A DNA stretch of 64,000 nucleotides from Schmidtea nova (Eukaryota): assembly GCA_044892505.1 (NCBI GenBank), contig CM097882.1:432636001-432700000 (forward strand), in the 5' to 3' direction. Position numbers and translations under genes: made by a program. Under the pieces are notes generated by a model that was not told the DNA's origin, searched no databases, and saw only the letters and a program-made list of their open reading frames with translations. Each line of letters begins with the position of its first letter. Position 1 is the first letter of the stretch. Of this stretch, positions 46,388 to 58,927 are shown piece by piece.

Positions 46388-47493
46388 GAAATTATTAAGT
46401 TTTCTTTTTTGTAAAAATACCGTTTAAAAATCTGTTCTTTATTAATTTTTAAAGATTAGGTGTTTTGATATTTGATTAGTGTTCATTTTGTAACTTTGTT
46501 TAAAAATTATATTTAAATTAGTGAAAATGAAATTTTTTTAAAAAATTTTGGAGTCTCATCCATTTACTTAGGCTTGTAGGACGTGTTGTTGTTCTACTTA
46601 CAAATACTTGTCTCTACTCTCAGGTACTTTTCTCTCTAGGGTTACAACACGCACATATAAATCTTACTGCTTATGCACCCGTAAATACCCTATTTATTTA
46701 CGTTGGTACTGTGCATGACAGCTGACTGCGAATCGACAGGTGAGCTCCTATACAAGAACTACTCTCGATTCGTCACTCGTACGGGTTCTACTGGACCGAT
46801 AGAAGGTCATGTTATTTCCCACTCTCACTCTTGCGATGGTCTCTATTTTCGGGTGTGATCTCTTAATTATCTCTTTAAATTCCATCTCAGTTCTCCGTCG
46901 GAAAAACAATAAACAAATTTATACTACGAAATTTATTAACGAAATTATTAAGTTTTCTTTTTTGTAAAAATACCGTTAAAAAATCTGTTCTTTATTAATT
47001 TTTAAAGATTAGGTGTTTTGATATTTGATTAGTGTTCATTTTGTAACTTTGTTTAAAAATTATATTTAAATTAGTGAAAATGAAATTTTTTTAAAAAATT
47101 TTGGAGTCTCATCCATTTACTTAGGCTTGTAGGACGTGTTGTTGTTCTACTTACAAATACTTGTCTCTACTCTCAGGTACTTTTCTCTCTAGGGTTACAA
47201 CACGCACATATAAATCTTACTGCTTATGCACCCGTAAATACCCTATTTATTTACGTTGGTACTGTGCATGACAGCTGACTGCGAATCGACAGGTGAGCTC
47301 CTATACAAGAACTACTCTCGATTCGTCACTCGTACGGGTTCTACTGGACCGATAGAAGGTCATGTTATTTCCCACTCTCACTCTTGCGATGGTCTCTATT
47401 TTCGGGTGTGATCTCTTAATTATCTCTTTAAATTCCATCTCAGTTCTCCGTCGGAAAAACAATAAACAAATTTATACTACGAAATTTATTAAC
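46388..47493 (+). repeat. 553-bp tandem duplication, each unit carrying an LTR-like start (TGTAGG) and motif A (46702-46808, 47255-47361)
   Basis: Units look identical except one base near the start; stem CGAATCGA/TCGATTCG, core CAGGTGAGC...ACTACTC, hairpin GACC-GATAGAA-GGTC. Confidence 0.9.
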
Positions 47494-49958: not shown

Positions 49959-51290
49959 ATGATAGTTACTACAAACTCTACAGGAGCCATGTCGGCCAAA
50001 GATACAGAATCGATCAAAATCTGCAAATACCAAATTATCCGAATTGACGATAGAAGAATGAAAATTCAAATTCTGAAGCTGCATCAAAAGTTAAGAATTA
50101 AGTTGTCTGAAGAAGTGCAAATGGCCAAAAAGAAAAGTTATTTTTTGCACATAATCACAGGAACAGCCGAGATCATGGATGAGCAAAACCAGCCCTGGCT
50201 AGAAATGAAAAAATTTACTGCGTGGAAACTTCAGGAGGAGATAATGAATAAACCGTTGAGAGCCGCCAATGAAGATGTGATAATGGTCATAGAAATCAGA
50301 ATCGACAATGAGTAGATATCCAACAGATGAGAACGATGAAACATTGATGAAAATTTCGGAGGAGATGCTGAATAGAAAAATGTCATTTATCAGGAAGCAA
50401 ATGGGGTTGGAAGAAATCCGCAACAGAATATTATTTATCGACGCGGAATATGGACACTCTGAAGCAGGAAAGATGATTCCCTTGTCTGTTGCCATCATGA
50501 ATTATCATGGCAAAATAATCCGAAACAATTTCATCACTCCAAGAGGAAAACTGAGGTATTTTAATTCAAAAATTCATGGGATAACAGAAGTTGCCAGCAG
50601 AAATCAATATTCTGAGATTAAAAAATTACAGGAATTGACCAAGGGAAAAATATTGATTGGGCATGATCTTCATTCTAAACTGGAATACCTGTAAATATGG
50701 ATCAATAGATTATATGGAGTACAGGATTTAGTAGCAGCGTGAGTGTTGAAATTGATGAATGTTAGCCAAAAAGGAGAGTGGTTTAAATTGAAAACCGTAA
50801 CTCAAGAATTATGAGGAGAAGAAACGCAAAAAGATATCCACACTGCGTTGGAAGATGTAAAAAGTATTAGAAATATTGAAAGTGGAAAGTCAATGGATTG
50901 ATGATGTGACGATTCCTAGGAAACAGCCCTCAAAAAAAGATTCGCTCGAGGAATACAAGAATCTACGTGGGCAAAGTACATTAGAAAGAGTACAGATTTC
51001 AGAAATGGTGGATCTAACCACATAAGAATCCAGGATGGAAATCGAATTCCCGGACAAACAATTGAATTGGGCAACAGAAAATAACTTAAAAACTACAGAA
51101 GTGAGTTTAGAAGTTATTGAAAGTTAAATGGTGGGAATAGCAGAATATAAAATGGAATATTGGCAAATGCCTAAAGATAAAAATGAAAGAGGAAACTGAG
51201 TCCAGAGATCGAGGAAAATGTAACGTATGCGAGAAAGGTGTATGTTCGAGAAGAAACAATTGTTCGATACCGGCATGGAGAAAAAAGCTT
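49959..51290 (+). pseudogene. REX4/ISG20-like DEDDh exonuclease gene, copy 2, with a C-terminal CCCH zinc-finger remnant
   Basis: Exo I FIDAE (D at 50440), Exo II region LIGHDLHSKL, Exo III HTALED (50839-56) in the same frame across stops; C-x7-C-x5-C-x3-H at 51219-76 after removing 1 nt. Confidence 0.78.
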
Positions 51291-52323
51291 AAAGCTTAAA
51301 TTCAATTAACTTATCTATATTTATATTGAAAAAATAAATAAATAGTTTAGTGAAAATTCGTCTCTTATTATTCATTCAGACAATCCACTAGTTTGAAAAA
51401 CCCCTTTTAATAGATCACTAAAGATTAGTAGGTATTATTGTTATCATGGAGTATTAAAAAGTCAACAATTTCAGTATTACAAAATAATAAAAAAAATCAA
51501 AAATCAGTAAAATTATTATCATGACCTTGTAGAAACCATTATAAATATTATATTATATCAATGAAATAAAATAAAAAAACAAAATTAAGGCAAAGCACTC
51601 TTGACCTTCGAGGGTTGAATTCCTTGGACAACGACTAAGACTGCTGCTGTAACTTGTTATTGTAATCGAGATTATATCAAAAAAAATATTATTACTATCA
51701 TTATTATTACTAATATGGAAAACACTTATCATTCTACAAAGATACTGATAAACCCTTGATGTCTTTTAATTTGCTAAGAATTCATAGAAAAACGACATTA
51801 AGGAATAATTATTCAATTATTTGCTTTACTATTAGTTGCAAAGTTCAGAACCTCTAACATCAAATGAACTAAACCTTGCGAGATTTAATCTTTAGTACGA
51901 GATACATCTAATTTACTCAACTGCCACTACTAACAAACTGCATACTCTTTTGGTTTTAAGCACTTTGGGTACGTTCAGGACAAATTTCATCTGTCACCAA
52001 GATATCATGGAACATATGAGTTAATAGGAAACTTGAAAATAATAAGGATGAAAACATGTTGGATGTTTAGGAATCCTTGTAATTTAATAATATATTTAAA
52101 CCTATTATAATTATTAATAAATTAATTATTATTGATATTATTATTAAGTATTGTAGTGCCTCCGTTATTTATATGTTATTATATTATTTAATTAAATATC
52201 AATATTTATATATTAAAATCAATCATTAAATGATTTATAAAAAAAATGCGATTTGTTTAAATCAGAAAAAAATGGCACTTATCTCTTAATTTAAAAAACG
52301 ACATGCAAAAAGGAATTTAAAAA

Positions 52324-53580
52324 ATGGAAGCTGCACCAGTTAAAACCCAACGCAAACGACGAAGTTACCAATTGAATGTTGTTGTGAAAAAGAACGCAAA
52401 TCGTACAAAGGAATTCAGCGAGCACAAGAGGCAATTGATACAATCAATCACCCCAGCGATTGCTACTAGTACAAAGACCGATATTTCTACCATTGAAATA
52501 CCAGAGCGCATTAAAGACAGCTATTTCATGAAGGAAAAGAAGACTAAATCAACTGTGAAATCTGATGATATATTTGCAGCTAAGAATTTGTCTTATTAAA
52601 TATATTTTCAGCTGCTAAATTTGTCTTTTTAATTATATTTGCAGCTGCTAAAATTGGTGTCAGAAATCCGCCTGATAACAGTCAAACAGGACTAGTCACG
52701 AACTGGTCAAGGAACGAATACGATGCACAATGGATCAAATTTGACGGATATGTCATATCAAATAATGAACGGTTATTTATCGAATCAGTTTTGAAGAAAC
52801 AACACGAAAACACTTACACTTGTGCCATTGTTCACAAAACTCAACCGAACCAGGTCTTCAGAAAAGATGTCATTCTAAGGATTGCGGTGCCAATCGTTCA
52901 AATACAGATCCTAGCTTCCGAGAAACTGACAATCAACGGCTTGATTCATAGGAAATGTGTCGGATTCAAATTGGCTCAATCGACTGAAAGATTTTCTTAT
53001 TATTGGATAGATTCCCAAGGAAGAACAATCTCGAAGACTGACACAATTCAAGTCCCAATAAATGATGAATCGGTATTCGGGCAATACGAATGTCATTACA
53101 GAGCTCATAAATCAGATGCATCATATCCCATCACAATCACCCCTTATCCTCAAAAGTTCCGTTTGAATGAGAAGTTCTCAATGCGATGTCAAGTGGCACC
53201 AGAACTCAAACAAGTTCAATATTCTTGGTATCATGACAATCAACTGTTGGAAAGCAATCAACAAACGATAACCTTTGACAGTTTCACCCGTTCGAAGCTT
53301 GGAGTGTACAAATGTAAAATAGTCGAACTGGATCAAAGAAATCAGAAAGTAGAATTAGAAGCCAAATCTTATCAACGTCTATCATAATTTGTCCCAATTA
53401 AAGTCGAACTGATCGAAGGAGCCGGATCACAAGTCGCTGTCATCATGTCGAAAAAAAAGAACTGCACTGTGAAATTTCTGCTGACAGTGAATATTCTGGA
53501 TCAGATGTTCAATGGAAGTTCGAAAACCAAGAATTATCTACTCCAGACTCCCTCAACCTTCAACAACCACACGGCGAGTC
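52324..53580 (+). pseudogene. Intronless multi-immunoglobulin-domain gene (three domains plus a truncated fourth), frameshifted
   Basis: Repeated C...W...YxC pattern (TYTC, GQYEC, GVYKC); frame break at a triple 32-33-bp repeat (52570-52650) and frameshifts after 53387. Confidence 0.72.
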
Positions 53581-53742
53581 ATATTTTAAATTTATACTAT
53601 TAATTAATTATTTATTATATACATTCCTTTTAAATTGCATAATATTATATATATAATACCTATTATAATTATAAAATTTTATGCTGCACAATTTTTCTAT
53701 TCTCCCATTAAAAGCTATACTAGTAACCCCCCTCAATCTACC

Positions 53743-54858
53743 ATGTACAACAACGAGTCTTTCGCCACTTCCCCAACATATGTCCTAACGCGTTTCAACC
53801 ACAAAACACGCCAAATCCCCATTTTCACGGATTTGCGCACTGATATCGCCACCTCTTATCTGATTAATAGGAATGAATTTTACATGACGTGCAATGGTTT
53901 CCCAATTTCATCACTCACCGACATTCCACCTAATGCTATCATAGAAATTCATTGCCGCGTTTTAGGAGGCGTCCGACCCACTACAGAACCGCCTTATTCA
54001 TCCACTTCACGCCCAATTTTGTTCTTTTTGGATCCCGACGGCACACCCTCGTCGTGGTTCCGCATTTTCGAATCGCGCACGTCTTCCTTTCCGAAATCAC
54101 GCGCCGATTACCTACTCGACAGCCTGCCATCTGAATTGATAGCCGAACTTGCCCCTAAAATAGCCAACGCGCTTTACGCAGACAACCCGTATGATGATCT
54201 CAAATCCCTGATAGTGTCAAAATACACCTCATCACAAACCCAAGCTCTCACAAAGCTTTTGGCACCACAAAATTACTCAGGACAACAGCCAAGCCTATTC
54301 CTAGAACAGATTGCCCGCTCCAACGACATCGCCATTCCAGATCTGTCCAAAAACACTCAACTCTTAAAACATCAATTCCTCTCCGCACTTCCATATAATC
54401 TACAAACCTCCCTCGCATTGGTAGACTCTGAAGACCCGTACCATCTTGCTAAAATAGCCGATCGCATTTATGCACTTCAACCCCATAAACCGCGCGCTGA
54501 TAATTACACACCACCACCGCCACCCTCCATTGTCAACGCAACACATTCACCCGAAAACCACTACACTTGCAACGTCACAAAGTATTCCAACTATACACCT
54601 CCATTACAGCAAGCACAACGCCCCAATCATCCACAGAACGTACAACCCAGTAGCAGCGCACCACTAATTTGTTTTTTCCACAGCCGATTCAAAAAACATG
54701 CACAGAAATGCTGCATTGGTTGCGCTTCCGAATTCCACAATCCTCTTGACCTAGTCATTCCAATCTGTATCTACCACCACCTATTCAAGAACGAAGCAAA
54801 ATCGTGCATAGACGGATGTACTTGGCACACGAGCAGTTACCACCATGCAAAAAACTAA
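53743..54858 (+). CDS. Ubiquitin-like domain fused to Ty3/Gypsy-type Gag (intact, 371 aa from ATG 53743)
   Basis: Residues 1-76 end IEIHCRVLGG; then gag-like PSSWFRIFESR...YDDLKSLI...QQPSLFL...QFLSALP...LAKIADRI; two CxxHxxFxxxAxxC knuckles. Confidence 0.82.
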   Translation: MYNNESFATSPTYVLTRFNHKTRQIPIFTDLRTDIATSYLINRNEFYMTCNGFPISSLTDIPPNAIIEIHCRVLGGVRPTTEPPYSSTSRPILFFLDPDGTPSSWFRIFESRTSSFPKSRADYLLDSLPSELIAELAPKIANALYADNPYDDLKSLIVSKYTSSQTQALTKLLAPQNYSGQQPSLFLEQIARSNDIAIPDLSKNTQLLKHQFLSALPYNLQTSLALVDSEDPYHLAKIADRIYALQPHKPRADNYTPPPPPSIVNATHSPENHYTCNVTKYSNYTPPLQQAQRPNHPQNVQPSSSAPLICFFHSRFKKHAQKCCIGCASEFHNPLDLVIPICIYHHLFKNEAKSCIDGCTWHTSSYHHAKN

Positions 54859-54903
54859 CTGTGTCGTCGGATATTCCTGGACGCTCCGATGACTTCCTGC
54901 CAG
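54849..54903 (+). promoter_or_regulatory. -1 programmed ribosomal frameshift signal
   Basis: A AAA AAC in the correct phase directly before the gag stop; 7-nt spacer; stem GTCGTCGGA(54863-71)/TCCGATGAC(54885-93); possible loop CTGG:CCAG pseudoknot. Confidence 0.7.
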
Positions 54904-55301
54904 TGAACACCTCTTCTCTCAGCAAACCACGTCCAACGTACACAATATCAACTCCACCAGCAAGCACCATCTCAGAAACAACCGCTACCCTCTCTACAGT
55001 ATTATTTCCTCACACGACACAACCACCAATAGCAATACAAGCACCAACACCTGAACAAGAACCAATCAGCACACCTTGCACAACACTAGCAACAACGACA
55101 ACAACATTACCCGACACACCACACAGAGCACCACCTGCATCACTACCAGCAGCAACATTCACAATTCCATCAGATACACCACTAACAATACCAGAAGCAC
55201 CACTCACCTTTTCCGACGACGACACCCGCACAGAAATACACACATATTCTAGCACAGCCGCCACAAAAAAAAAATTTCGTTTTCCTTTTGCGTTCTGTTA
55301 G
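54855..55301 (+). CDS. Pro/Thr-rich -1 frame extension of the UBL-Gag protein
   Basis: Open -1 frame (listed ORF 54804-55301); no intact protease, RT or integrase motif; the last ~40 nt run into a Tigger fragment. Confidence 0.5.
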   Translation, partial: LTVSSDIPGRSDDFLPVNTSSLSKPRPTYTISTPPASTISETTATLSTVLFPHTTQPPIAIQAPTPEQEPISTPCTTLATTTTTLPDTPHRAPPASLPAATFTIPSDTPLTIPEAPLTFSDDDTRTEIHTYSSTAATKKKFRFPFAFC

Positions 55302-56130
55302 AAGTTGTTGATAAGTGGATAAAGCATCTATAACACCCCGTCTTGCTTTTAAACTCTTGTCAAAATTTGGATCATTTTCAACAAATTGGTCCGTAATTTC
55401 AGTTATAGTGGTCAAACTCATTTTTACAAACGTCATCGAAAGTTCTTTTTGATTTTCTTCGAAATCACTACTATCAATATTTTTGTTTTCTTGCGCAGTT
55501 AATTTCTTGAACTATTTTTCCGACTTCTTCCACATTTACCTCATCAATACAGGTTTGTTTTGCTAATACCACTATTTCATTCATATCGACAGTGTCCAAT
55601 GTTTATGCTCTTACTTAAATCCGCGCCAAATGTTCTTCCATACTCCTTTGAAAGATCTTTCTGTTATCTCATTCCAAGAAAGGTTTATATTTGCTACAGC
55701 ATTTATGATATTGTAGTTTTTCCAAAATTCTCTTATTGATTGCTTCTCTTCTCCGTCTGTTTTTTCAAACATCTGCTTAAATGTTCGCCTCAAATAATAA
55801 ACTTTAAAATTGGATATAACGCCTGGGCCCGTTGGTTGGATTAAGACAGTTGTGTTAGGTGGCAAGAAACCCACTTTGACTGGAATGCATGTTGTTAAGT
55901 CTGATAAATTTCTTGGGTGGCTTAAAGCATTATCAATTAATAGTAGTGCTCTTTGTTCAAGTTTTTTAATTTCGCAATAACGTTTAACAGACGGGCAGAA
56001 ATATTTATTGAACCAATTCCGGAAAATTTTCATAGTTATCCATGATTTTTTATTAGACAGGAAAGAAAACATTCTAGGGATGCCTCCATCCACGACCAAA
56101 CATAAAATGCTTACGTGACACACAAGCACC
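55262..56130 (-). mobile_element. pogo/Tigger transposase 3' fragment
   Basis: NKKSWIT...FRNWF, LLLIDNALSHP, FLPPNTTVLIQP, acidic tail. Confidence 0.85.
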
Positions 56131-56197: not shown

Positions 56198-58927
56198 TAG
56201 GACATGGTTCGATTAATCGATTAATCGGTTAATCGATAAATTTATGTATGGTTTGATTAATCGAACAATTTCTAGTTAATTCGATTAATCGTTTTTTTTG
56301 TAGCTTGTATTTATTTGTAACAAGAAAATTAAAAATTCCGTATATGGAAGGCAATTGTTTTCCTGCACCTGCACCCAAAAGTATTAGGAGTCATTTCTAT
56401 TTTCCGCGAATTTTATTTAAAGTAGGAAATAGAAATTTATCACAGTAGGCTAGGCATAGTAAAAATAAAAGTTCTTTAGTTATTTTGTCATTACATTGCT
56501 ATTAGCATTTAGTTTTCTTTTAATAAATATTTAAAAGTGGTTGATATAAAAGTGAATTATTTTTCGGTATATTAATACTTAAATTTTTAAAAAATATAAA
56601 ATTATCTAAATAATTGTGCTCGAGAAAAACCTCTAAAAACAACACCAATTTTATCAATAATCTCTTATTTTTCAAAACAGGTATACCTTTTACAAAATAT
56701 AATATATAAAATATTTATATAATAAAAATTAAATTTAGATTAATCTGTGGCTGAGAAGGAAAAAGAAAGCGATTGGATTCAATCCAAAGAAAAGAGAAGT
56801 GAAATTTGGACTCATCTATTAATTAACAGCAAAGACAATAATATTTTAAAGTGCAAACACTGACACTACATTTCAGTCGCATAAAACAACGACGTCATAC
56901 AGGTATCATATGCAACACAAACATAATTTGTGTAAAGTGGTTGCTTCAACTTCAGCAGCAAGTCAAAATAATGACGCATTTAAAGTTATTTCGTTTTTTA
57001 CCAAAAAATCTGCATCATCCCCAGGATACGTACTTGCTAAATTAACTGCATTAGATCGCATACCGTTTGCTACTCTGGTAAATAGCGAAGAAATCAAAAA
57101 TGGATGAAAAGCCCAAGGTTTAAGTATTCCTGTAATAGAAAAGGGTATCAAGGCTATGGTGGTTGATTACGCAGATACGATTCAACAAGCTCTGAAAAAC
57201 AAACTTAAATTGAAAATCGAAGCTTGGGAACGATTTTCTTTGTCTTTTGATGAGTGGACTTCAAAACGCAATCGTCGATATATGTGTCTAAATATTCACA
57301 CCAAAGATAAAGATGTTTTTGGGCTTGGCATGATAAGAATAAAAGAAACCATGCCAGCAGCCAAAGCAGTTGAAATTGTAGAAAAAAAATTAAGTGAATA
57401 TGACATTATTTTGAAAAAGCACATAGTGGCATTTGTGACAGATGGCGCCTCTGTAATGAAAAAGATGGGTCGTTTGATGTGTATTTACCATCAAGTTTGC
57501 CACAGCCACGGAATACATTTGGCAGTTGTAGACGTCCTCTACAAAAAAAATTCAACTACGTTTGAAGAAATAGACGAGGAAATCCAATTGGAAAATGAAA
57601 ACGCTGGAGATCAATCTGATTACGATTCAAATGAAAGTGAAACAGAAAGTGAACTTCAATTTTGGATGGAAGAAAATTCTTCAGAACACATAAACTGCGC
57701 TCTAGCTGATTATTTTTCAACAGTTATTCAAAAAGTAAGAAAAATAGCTCGAATGTTTCGTAAATCTCCTGTTAAAAATGATGTGCTGCAAAAAGCCTGT
57801 AAAAAATGAAATTGGTAAGGAATTAAATTTGATAATTGATACCTCCACAAGATGGAATTCGCTGCTGGCTATGCTTAAACGGTTCTTGGAAATGAAAGAC
57901 GTTATAAAAACAGTTTTACATGATTTGTCTGTTGTTCAAATTTTTCCTTCCAATTATGAACTAAATGTTATTTCGGATATTGTTGAATCATTGGAAGTAA
58001 TTGAAGTAAGCTCCTTGGCCCTGGCCAGGAAAGATTGCAACTTAATACAAGCAACAAAAATCTTTGAATTCTTATTGACAAAATTAAAAGAGCAATCCCA
58101 CTCAAGTGTGCTGGCACAAAAGTTTTGCACGTCAATGACTACCAGAATTAATGAGAGAAGGAACCCAAATCTTGAAAGATTACTGGTGTATTTGGATGAC
58201 CCAATAAAATATTTAGAAAGTGTATCGGATGAAAACTTTGTTTTTAAAAAACCAACCAAAAATGAGCTCGCTAATACCGCTAAAGATTTTGCTAATAGGT
58301 TACTTATACCGCTTACAGAAAATCCATACGAAGCTGATTCTGATTACGAAGATGAAAACGATGTTATGGAAATTGTATCTGAAAAAAGAGCAAAATATTC
58401 AAAAGCAGATGAGTTACAGGAATTCTTAACTAAAAAACTTGCTAAAACCAATTCAACAGCTGCATTCAACTATAGTTTACAAGATATAAAAAGGGAAATG
58501 ATGGTTTACGAACACAGTAAAATAAAAACAGATTTACTATCAAAAATTTATAATGGATTGTTGAGCGTGCGGCCATCATCAGTGGAGGCGGAAAGAAGCT
58601 TTAGTGCTGCTGGTTTGTTCGTTACAAAGCTCCGGACATCCTTGAACGACAATACGTTGTATAAACTCTGCTTCCTACGTGCACATTTATTAAATGAAAA
58701 AAATACAAACTAAATATTTTATAATGTATTATTTTATTTTTTACCTATATATGTACTGAATTTTATTTGAAGTGAAATAAACTTTTATTTTTGTTAAAAT
58801 GCAGAAGTTATTTACTTAAAATACATATAAAAGAAAAATTAATAAATTAATCGATTAATCGACTCAAAAACTGAACAATTAATCGTTAATCATTTTTCTC
58901 TAAAATCGATTAATCAACCATGCCCTA
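56198..58927 (+). mobile_element. hAT (Ac/hobo, BED-type) transposon, complete ends, transposase with a stop and frameshifts
   Basis: TIR TAGG(A/G)CATGGTT; TSD ATAGGTGA/GTAGGTGA; FDEWTS, VTDGASVM, CHSHGIHL, TRWNS, PSSVEAERSFS. Confidence 0.93.

Follow-up and report, generated by a model that had tools for sequence, protein, structure and literature searches.

We analyzed a stretch of 64,000 nucleotides from Schmidtea nova (NCBI GenBank assembly GCA_044892505.1, contig CM097882.1, positions 432,636,001 to 432,700,000 of the forward strand), referred to below as the window and numbered from its first letter. A preliminary description of this DNA had drawn attention to a -1 frameshift signal followed by a Pro/Thr-rich reading frame (54849..55301). 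We identify this segment as the gag-pol junction of a multicopy Ty3/gypsy-type long terminal repeat (LTR) retrotransposon, at which a -1 shift likely yields Gag-Pol; the copy in the window is truncated and pol-deleted, and its Gag stands behind a ubiquitin-like tag that is probably cut by host enzymes. We put the probability of this reading at roughly 0.85.

A -1 frameshift signal shared by copies and families

The slippery heptamer A AAA AAC, in the gag phase directly before the stop codon TAA, the 7-nt spacer and the 9-bp stem (54863-71/54885-93, with one G-U pair) had been reported in the preliminary description, and we confirmed all of them in the sequence at 54849-54893. The signal comprises a heptamer of the form X XXY YYZ, in phase with the upstream open reading frame (ORF), and a predicted hairpin as the stable structure 5-9 nt downstream. 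Such motifs are weak on their own (on its + strand, the window has AAAAAAC at 23 places), and the weight of the signal derives from comparison among copies and families.

Among 49 copies of the family to which the window element belongs (family A), the heptamer is intact in 45, and 437 of 441 cells of stem pairs are retained, with one G-U/A-U exchange (14 versus 35 copies). The hairpin is the most stable among 360 local 40-nt windows and is equalled by 9 of 200 shuffles. T at position 54862 is unique to the window copy among the 49; in one sibling that we folded, the stem has 11 bp and the spacer 5 nt. A hairpin is found 5-7 nt past the heptamer in seven representatives of six families (family A and the sister families B-F), its sequence differing and its position constant. 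Its ranks among 360 local windows are 1, 1, 1, 1, 7, 2 and 1, and between 0 and 13 of 200 shuffles were as stable. The heptamer A AAA AAC is also present in families B-E, while the single family-F copy has AAAAGAC; the signal is thus retained across families whose reverse transcriptases (RTs) are 56-74% identical. Among Gag homologs drawn from a library of 1.84 billion proteins, two CHCC motifs occur in 39 of the best 50, and 33 of these 39 have KN or EN at the C-terminus, followed by no more than one residue; such endings are the footprint of the same heptamer. Collectively, the segment likely represents, as the preliminary description had held, a canonical -1 frameshift signal, here that of a Ty3/gypsy-type element, at which shifting is predicted.

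It had also been noted that the loop could pair with a downstream CCAG, which would form an H-type pseudoknot. The two strands, CUGG (54877-80) and CCAG (54900-03), are indeed present in the window copy. They are invariant in 49 of 49 family-A copies, so that they offer no covariation, and copies of sister family B lack the CCAG partner. We regard the pseudoknot as unsupported.

The -1 frame is the 5' part of pol

The -1 frame is open for 148 codons up to 55301 and Pro/Thr-rich (P 16%, T 23% in residues 21-150), in line with the low complexity noted previously. The length of 148 codons is an accident of the window copy, because a frame break near 55236 and truncation at 55267 define it; the last ~21 codons are out of the element frame or are not element sequence. 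The preliminary description had the signal lead into this frame rather than into pol. It is the 5' part of pol and not an alternative to it: in the long (6.8-kb) copies, the -1 frame passes through the Pro/Thr tract to the motif LIDTGS at ~codon 170 and then to RT, RNase H and integrase. Pfam matches to these three domains have E values of 1e-31 to 6e-9, while the protease, with weak Pfam support (E 0.09-0.1), was assigned by its motif LIDTGS. Stop-to-stop frames of 1212 codons are present in 3 of 13 long regions.

Two tandem duplicates were set aside among the 49 distinct copies, and the other 47 were translated. Seventeen of the 20 non-short copies reach LIDTGS, one keeps the frame open throughout but has an altered motif, and the remaining two are interrupted at codon 41. 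Of the 26 short copies, 20 read into a protease remnant, which almost always has the sequence LADTDS, and the other six are interrupted before it; in 15, the frame closes at the natural stop of pol. In the five sister families, the protease lies 35-45 codons past the gag stop. Hence, the Pro/Thr tract is an insertion peculiar to this family at the 5' end of pol; most short copies have a longer tract than the long copies do. The sequence FLPVNTSS, which had been considered as a dead protease site, aligns with the start of pol in the sister families and lies ~155 codons ahead of the true protease motif LIDTGS, and was rejected as such a site.

The window copy and its element

A DNA search of the AT-rich host genome (1.25 Gb) yielded 2563 first-look candidates. 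Forty of these were scored, and dispersed copies are 89-97% identical. Siblings have LTRs of ~510 nt, a primer-binding site, a polypurine tract and 5-bp target duplications, and with their capsid fold and the order protease-RT-RNase H-integrase (PR-RT-RH-IN) they show the organization of Ty3/gypsy LTR retrotransposons; of the LTRs, primer site, polypurine tract and target duplication, the window copy itself has the 5' LTR and the primer site only. LTR pairs within a copy are 96.6-100% identical.

Copies of the element come in two lengths, 6.8 kb and 4.0 kb. In the shorter form, the sequence passes from mid-protease straight to the final pol codons, so the earlier proposal of an internal deletion of pol was right for this subfamily, which has lost most of the gene. 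The window copy shares 96.2% identity with a short copy and 92.4% with a long one; it is of the 4.0-kb type and cut off at 55267. Its 3' part, including the 3' LTR, was not found in the window or in the next 30 kb. Adjoining it is an unrelated transposon fragment (Table 1), which is joined at an internal point (its other copies extend leftwards). This fragment supplies the 148-codon frame with its final codons and its stop.

Family-A LTRs (window 52641-52652 and siblings) mostly end in AA and not in the usual CA, with clean 5-bp target duplications. Head-to-tail tandem copies of entire elements with common LTRs were also observed (L040, L090-L092).

A ubiquitin-like domain directly before the capsid

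From 53743, the frame encoding the ubiquitin-like domain and Gag is open for 371 codons. The structure predicted for the former matches ISG15 and ubiquitin folds with a Z score of 7.9 (rmsd 2.3 over 64 residues), values of Z 7-8 being middling. The capsid matches the C-terminal capsid domain (CA-CTD) of murine leukemia virus (MLV; Z 10.0, rmsd 2.3, 78 residues) and that of PEG10 (Z 8.4). Foldseek returned no match at E 0.001, and both fold assignments draw on weaker Foldseek rows and on the Z scores from structure comparison. One homolog (P0019) has a Pfam ubiquitin match with an E value of 4e-23.

Like cleavable ubiquitin fusions, the element combines a beta-grasp fold with a terminal Gly-Gly. 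We aligned the query with 37 homologs selected from 150 listed; seven of the 38 rows do not cover the site, and Gly-Gly is present in 31 of the 31 that do, at only 19-51% identity with the query. Matching by a strict Gly-Gly pattern recovered 22 of 50 proteins, owing to truncated proteins and pattern misses, and the alignment count was used instead. The alignment has no conserved stretch usable for locating related loci, and the junction DNA compared here is that of the host genome. Host deubiquitinases would probably cut after this Gly-Gly.

Table 1. Features of the element copy and of its right-hand neighbor (window coordinates)
Feature	Position	Strand	Remarks
5' LTR	52152..52652	+	TG...AA ends; flank AGTAT 52147-51; matches both sibling LTRs
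Spliced 5' piece of host eL6 (RPL6) mRNA	52308..52586	+	In LTR; likely start codon 52324 (MEAAP); Pfam PF01159
Hydrophobic segment, LTR end	52587..52652	+	Signal-anchor-like in open-frame siblings; Kyte-Doolittle peak 2.0-2.4 in three of four leader types
Primer-binding site TGGTGTCAGAA	52655..52665	+	Read through in frame by ORF1; complementary to host tRNA 3' end
Swappable cassette, here Ig-like domains	52703..53553	+	Pfam Ig_2/Ig_3 E ~1e-9; stop 53385-87, frame break near 53452
Predicted transmembrane helix	53580..53700	+	Hydropathy 2.5; frame break near 53650 in window copy
Internal AUG and ubiquitin-like domain ending RVLGG	53743..53970	+	AlphaFold pLDDT mostly 86-96; directly before capsid
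Gag capsid domain (DUF7041)	54007..54486	+	Pfam PF23055 E 8e-7
Two CHCC zinc knuckles (Cx2Hx9Cx3C)	54670..54819	+	Eight Cys/His at least 90% conserved in homolog alignment
Slippery heptamer A AAA AAC	54849..54855	+	Gag phase, immediately 5' of gag stop TAA 54856-58
5' part of pol, -1 frame, Pro/Thr-rich spacer before protease	54855..55267	+	Aligns with short and long siblings continuing to protease; frame break near 55236
Predicted stimulatory stem-loop	54863..54893	+	437/441 pair cells pairing; rank 1 of 360 local windows
Pogo-like DDE transposon fragment, unrelated	55275..56058	-	Pfam DDE_1 E 2e-28; 1266 first-look candidates

Host mRNA pieces and cassettes in the ORF1 leader

In intact copies, the gag frame (ORF1) comprises ~880 codons and begins inside the LTR. 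It runs from a host-derived piece in the LTR through a hydrophobic stretch, the primer site, a cassette, a helix and the ubiquitin fold to the capsid and the two CHCC knuckles; at the level of sequence, this leader-ubiquitin-Gag architecture is evident. In the window copy, the leader is broken at several places.

The RPL6 piece corresponds to the host gene in four blocks of 88-100% nucleotide identity, lacks its two GT-AG introns and has a 141-nt in-frame internal deletion; an RPL6 mRNA start upstream of the 16-nt exon was not found. The tRNA that matches the primer site has a long variable arm and an intron and was read by eye as Leu(CAA), the anticodon assignment by ARAGORN being incorrect. 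A long tandem array near 300.5 Mb of contig C2 (L269), with a unit of ~0.9 kb, contains a tRNA-Gly, a tRNA-Gln and an intron-bearing tRNA matching the primer site. Pattern matches number 804 genome-wide, some of which are primer sites of other elements.

The cassette following the primer site is exchanged between copies. Its type in the window is a minority one (61 first-look candidates versus 913 for the next segment), and the number of its Ig domains is not settled, Pfam recognizing one clearly and a second weakly. We inspected 40 further family-A loci, 30 of which were parsed for their cassette: an Ig-like cassette of a second, different type is present in 23 (in one of them with a deletion), Gln/Asn-rich cassettes of two types in six, and the Ig type of the window in one. 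The two Ig types are 25-35% identical in protein and show no DNA match. The frame is kept in 24 of the 30 parsed leaders. In leaders of 297-598 codons, whose representatives were chosen for open frames, there are no in-frame stops, whereas the other frames have 16-49 and shuffled sequences would be expected to have 19-40.

The single-sequence model of the 880-residue ORF1 product is of low confidence (pLDDT 36), its sole long confident element being the predicted transmembrane helix (H448-498). No relatives of the long leader (ORF1 residues 140-880) were found at E 0.001 among proteins of 484-1540 residues, and none of the Ig region among proteins of 168-538 residues; being confined to these size classes, the searches do not demonstrate absence. 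Atlas matches for the Ig region are generic Ig clusters at 0.93-0.94. A GT-AG joint was absent from the contigs of four runs of unknown kind, a result that is uninformative on expression.

The hydrophobic segment at the end of the LTR may have a role at the membrane. Such a role fits families A and D, which have two hydrophobic segments, and fits B, C, E and F less well. Between these segments, N-glycosylation sequons are many in family D and just one or two in family A. Hydrophobic stretches also arise easily in DNA of 85% AT.

Sister families with other captured pieces

The five sister families (B-F) have the ubiquitin-Gag layout together with the -1 signal. Where the leader is long, the host pieces found in the LTRs differ. 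In family C, the first ~150 and the last ~30 bases of the LTRs are common and the middle is variable. Fifteen of 26 parsed family-C LTRs contain the 5' untranslated region (UTR), the start codon and the first ~100 codons of host PP2A-A, and 11 contain other cassettes; 25 of the 26 are open through the primer site. The PP2A-A capture is 99.4% identical to the host gene without its two GT-AG introns. Family-D leaders begin with the N-terminus of NOMO or of a histidine phosphatase, with signal-peptide-like starts, and the family-B leader contains a nuclear-receptor zinc finger piece. Splicing of captured pieces was tested for RPL6 and PP2A-A only; the host NOMO gene was not singled out among 128 matches. 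In a tree of RTs (30 rows), families A-E and 12 unnamed metagenomic proteins form a clade of their own (98/96).

Several further observations concern individual loci and homologs. One family-C locus (L288) has two LTR-type cassettes in series, with primer-site-like sequence between them and in frame, which hints at cassette stacking. Many frame-broken family-B loci carry a long open pol, and one family-B copy (L138) has gag and pol in a single frame of 1683 codons, other matches being open for 1673-1683 codons. Some distant Gag homologs have host-like N-termini by Pfam (histone H2A, 5'-nucleotidase and SCC3; among P0011, P0015, P0024 and P0062), possibly as gene-calling fusions; that of another we take to be HSP90-like.

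Selection on ORF1

Variants were compared among 43 copies, four recombinant or tandem rows having been dropped, and those present in at least three copies were scored as shared, for comparison with private ones. The ratio of nonsynonymous (N) to synonymous (S) polymorphism (pN/pS) of shared variants is 0.13 in the capsid and 0.14 in the knuckles. For the two together, there are 10N/20S shared versus 74N/42S private variants (p = 0.004), and both are under purifying selection. In the short copies alone, the shared pN/pS of the capsid is 0.10 (p = 0.047). Stops in ORF1 account for none of 74 shared amino-acid variants and for 25 of 335 private ones (p = 0.013). Three shared one-base indels lie upstream of the likely start codon.

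Alternative explanations

The preliminary description had offered two functional accounts of the frame behind the signal. In one, the frameshift makes a capsid isoform with a long, mucin-like Pro/Thr tail, which the short subfamily would keep for a role of its own. The openness of the -1 frame up to the protease remnant or the natural pol stop in many short copies and the greater length of their tract are consistent with this, as is the direction of the polymorphism data for the tract in short copies (shared pN/pS 0.46 versus private 0.92). However, this difference is not significant (13N/11S versus 85N/36S, p = 0.15), a control frame gives 0.68, and in long copies the shared value is 1.5 on five variants. 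Close to where the tract begins, two indels that break the frame are each common to five copies, and open frames are to be expected in copies as young as their LTR pairs indicate. The product would moreover be cytosolic, and mucin-type glycosylation does not occur in the cytosol. We therefore consider such an isoform quite improbable. In the other account, the locus is a domesticated gag gene comparable to PEG10 or PNMA3 that has kept its -1 frameshift for a host function. The open ubiquitin-Gag frame, the intact signal and the PEG10-like capsid fold would suit it. A domesticated gag is a single-copy, immobile, intact and conserved locus, whereas the one studied here is multicopy, young and truncated, with a leader broken at several places; thousands of first-look candidates, dispersed siblings 96-97% identical, paired LTRs and target duplications speak for a mobile family. 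Siblings with full pol lie behind the same signal, an outcome that the preliminary description itself had named as evidence against domestication, and this account is almost certainly wrong.

A weightier alternative concerns the leader. It could be captured junk; Gag would then be translated from an internal AUG or from a spliced RNA, and the ubiquitin-like domain would serve, uncleaved, as a matrix-like module or a degradation tag. Several findings favor it and weigh against our own interpretation. An internal AUG is present near the ubiquitin-like domain in both families A and B, at 53743 in the window; hence, Gag may also be made without the leader. In 24 of 30 family-B loci, one common frame break lies where the ubiquitin-like domain begins, and the leaders of families E and F are short and lack the hydrophobic helix. 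The shared pN/pS values of the Ig cassette (0.70, p = 0.56) and of the ubiquitin-like domain (0.72, p = 1.0) are indistinguishable from neutral on few variants, and one family-E copy has RLRSG in place of the Gly-Gly. The evidence for the frameshift signal has adverse points as well: there is no two-sided compensatory change in the stem among the 49 family-A copies, which were picked by similarity and are therefore young and non-independent, and the stability of the hairpin in folds of 55-101 nt is unremarkable (z -0.5 to -1.4).

Against a junk leader stand the long leaders free of in-frame stops, the preservation of the frame through independent captures and deletions, and the Gly-Gly found at every covered site in divergent proteins, a feature that a purely structural domain would not need. 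The lack of shared ORF1 stops and the near-neutral cassette together indicate that the frame is kept, while the sequence of the cassette may matter little. On balance, we regard a dispensable leader as unlikely and prefer the reading in which Gag is released from it by cleavage.

Comparison with known systems

In ubiquitin-ribosomal protein fusions and in FUBI-eS30, a Gly-Gly tag lets host proteases set the N-terminus of the next protein. In contrast to these precursors, the tag described here appears to be ancient and fixed across a whole clade. MLV glyco-Gag is a membrane form of Gag that is started upstream; the topology predicted for the present element differs in leaving Gag in the cytosol. 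The pseudoknot of PEG10 and PNMA3 has no supported counterpart here.

Canonical -1 programmed frameshifting (PMC5009743) differs in nothing substantive from the signal described here, which is a textbook one with a stimulator that looks like a simple stem-loop. With Ty3/gypsy elements of the CsRn1 clade (CsRn1, PwRn1, AgCR; PMC2582038), the element shares the CHCC Gag signature, a DT/SG protease and the order PR-RT-RH-IN, and nine AgCR elements likewise have gag and pol overlapping in -1 (PMC2582038). It differs from this clade in having two CHCC motifs and a tRNA-Leu-type instead of a tRNA-Trp primer site, and in the ubiquitin-like domain and long captured leader before Gag, which are not mentioned in the available part of PMC2582038. 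The element thus resembles the CsRn1 clade, but is not filed there because its primer site does not correspond to tRNA-Trp; our RT tree contains no CsRn1 reference.

The 4.0-kb siblings, with two LTRs and gag and without RT and integrase, resemble the non-autonomous elements called TR-GAG, a name defined for plants. Plant TR-GAG elements (PMC8704663) likewise have two LTRs, an intact gag, no RT or integrase, and an autonomous partner; the elements described here differ in their animal host, in keeping the frameshift and half of the protease, and in their origin by simple internal deletion. LTR-mediated retroposition (PMC5131818) also places spliced host mRNA pieces in LTR elements, presumably by template switching, and produces multi-gene chimeras. 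There, in Drosophila, the piece takes the place of part of the internal ORFs; here the 5' ends and start codons of host mRNAs lie in the LTRs of pol-bearing elements and in the gag frame. The giant planarian Burro/GYPSM1 elements (PMC6431247) are similarly of gypsy type, with host-derived cargo and an Ubi2/SUMO-like domain in the polyprotein. In contrast to the 6.8-kb element, in which the ubiquitin-like domain is immediately upstream of the capsid, Burro exceeds 30 kb, its Gag is N-terminal and the SUMO-like domain lies downstream (PMC6431247). The available parts of PMC8532177, PMC11410931 and PMC12471100 contain nothing on the leader-ubiquitin-Gag layout. A description of a ubiquitin-Gag or an Ig-Gag leader was not found in the open-access papers searched; repeat catalogues of planarians in supplements may cover these families.

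Other features of the window

A hAT-type transposase is encoded at 56850-58713 (+), split over three open frames (DUF659, Dimer_Tnp_hAT). A frame of 133 codons at 50293-50694 (+) has no Pfam match; from its motif, we take it to resemble a DEDDh exonuclease. Identical direct repeats 553 nt apart are present at 46388-47323.

Proposed mechanism and implications

In the mechanism that we propose, ribosomes would start at the borrowed AUG in the LTR and produce a fusion of leader, ubiquitin-like domain and Gag. At A AAA AAC, a fraction of them would shift back by one base and add Pol, so that the frameshift would set the ratio of Gag to Gag-Pol; the Pro/Thr tract would be a tolerated linker that the protease trims. 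Cleavage after Gly-Gly by host deubiquitinases would free Gag from the captured leader, and the leader could be swapped, as long as its frame is open, because of this release. Captures probably occur by template switching to co-packaged mRNA, and short copies probably depend in trans on borrowed Pol while providing Gag themselves.

There is nothing unusual in the frameshift itself, and the leader is of greater interest. Tentatively, and with more doubt than confidence, we suggest that these elements represent an animal LTR clade that captures host 5' ends with their start codons and releases its Gag through a Gly-Gly tag cut by deubiquitinases, and that in families A and D a membrane-anchored Gag precursor displays Ig cassettes on the surface of cells or particles, env-like and without a fusogen. 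If this holds true, a retrotransposon would solve translation initiation by means of borrowed host 5' ends, and host ubiquitin processing would replace its own protease in defining the N-terminus of Gag. It would also explain ongoing in-frame exon shuffling, for which the near-identity of the PP2A-A capture with the host gene is an example. Pieces of housekeeping genes are placed in many LTR copies in this way, which bears on silencing by small RNAs. Should the membrane topology be real, the clade would offer a testable path by which an ordinary retrotransposon could give rise to a particle with surface display and yet acquire no env gene.

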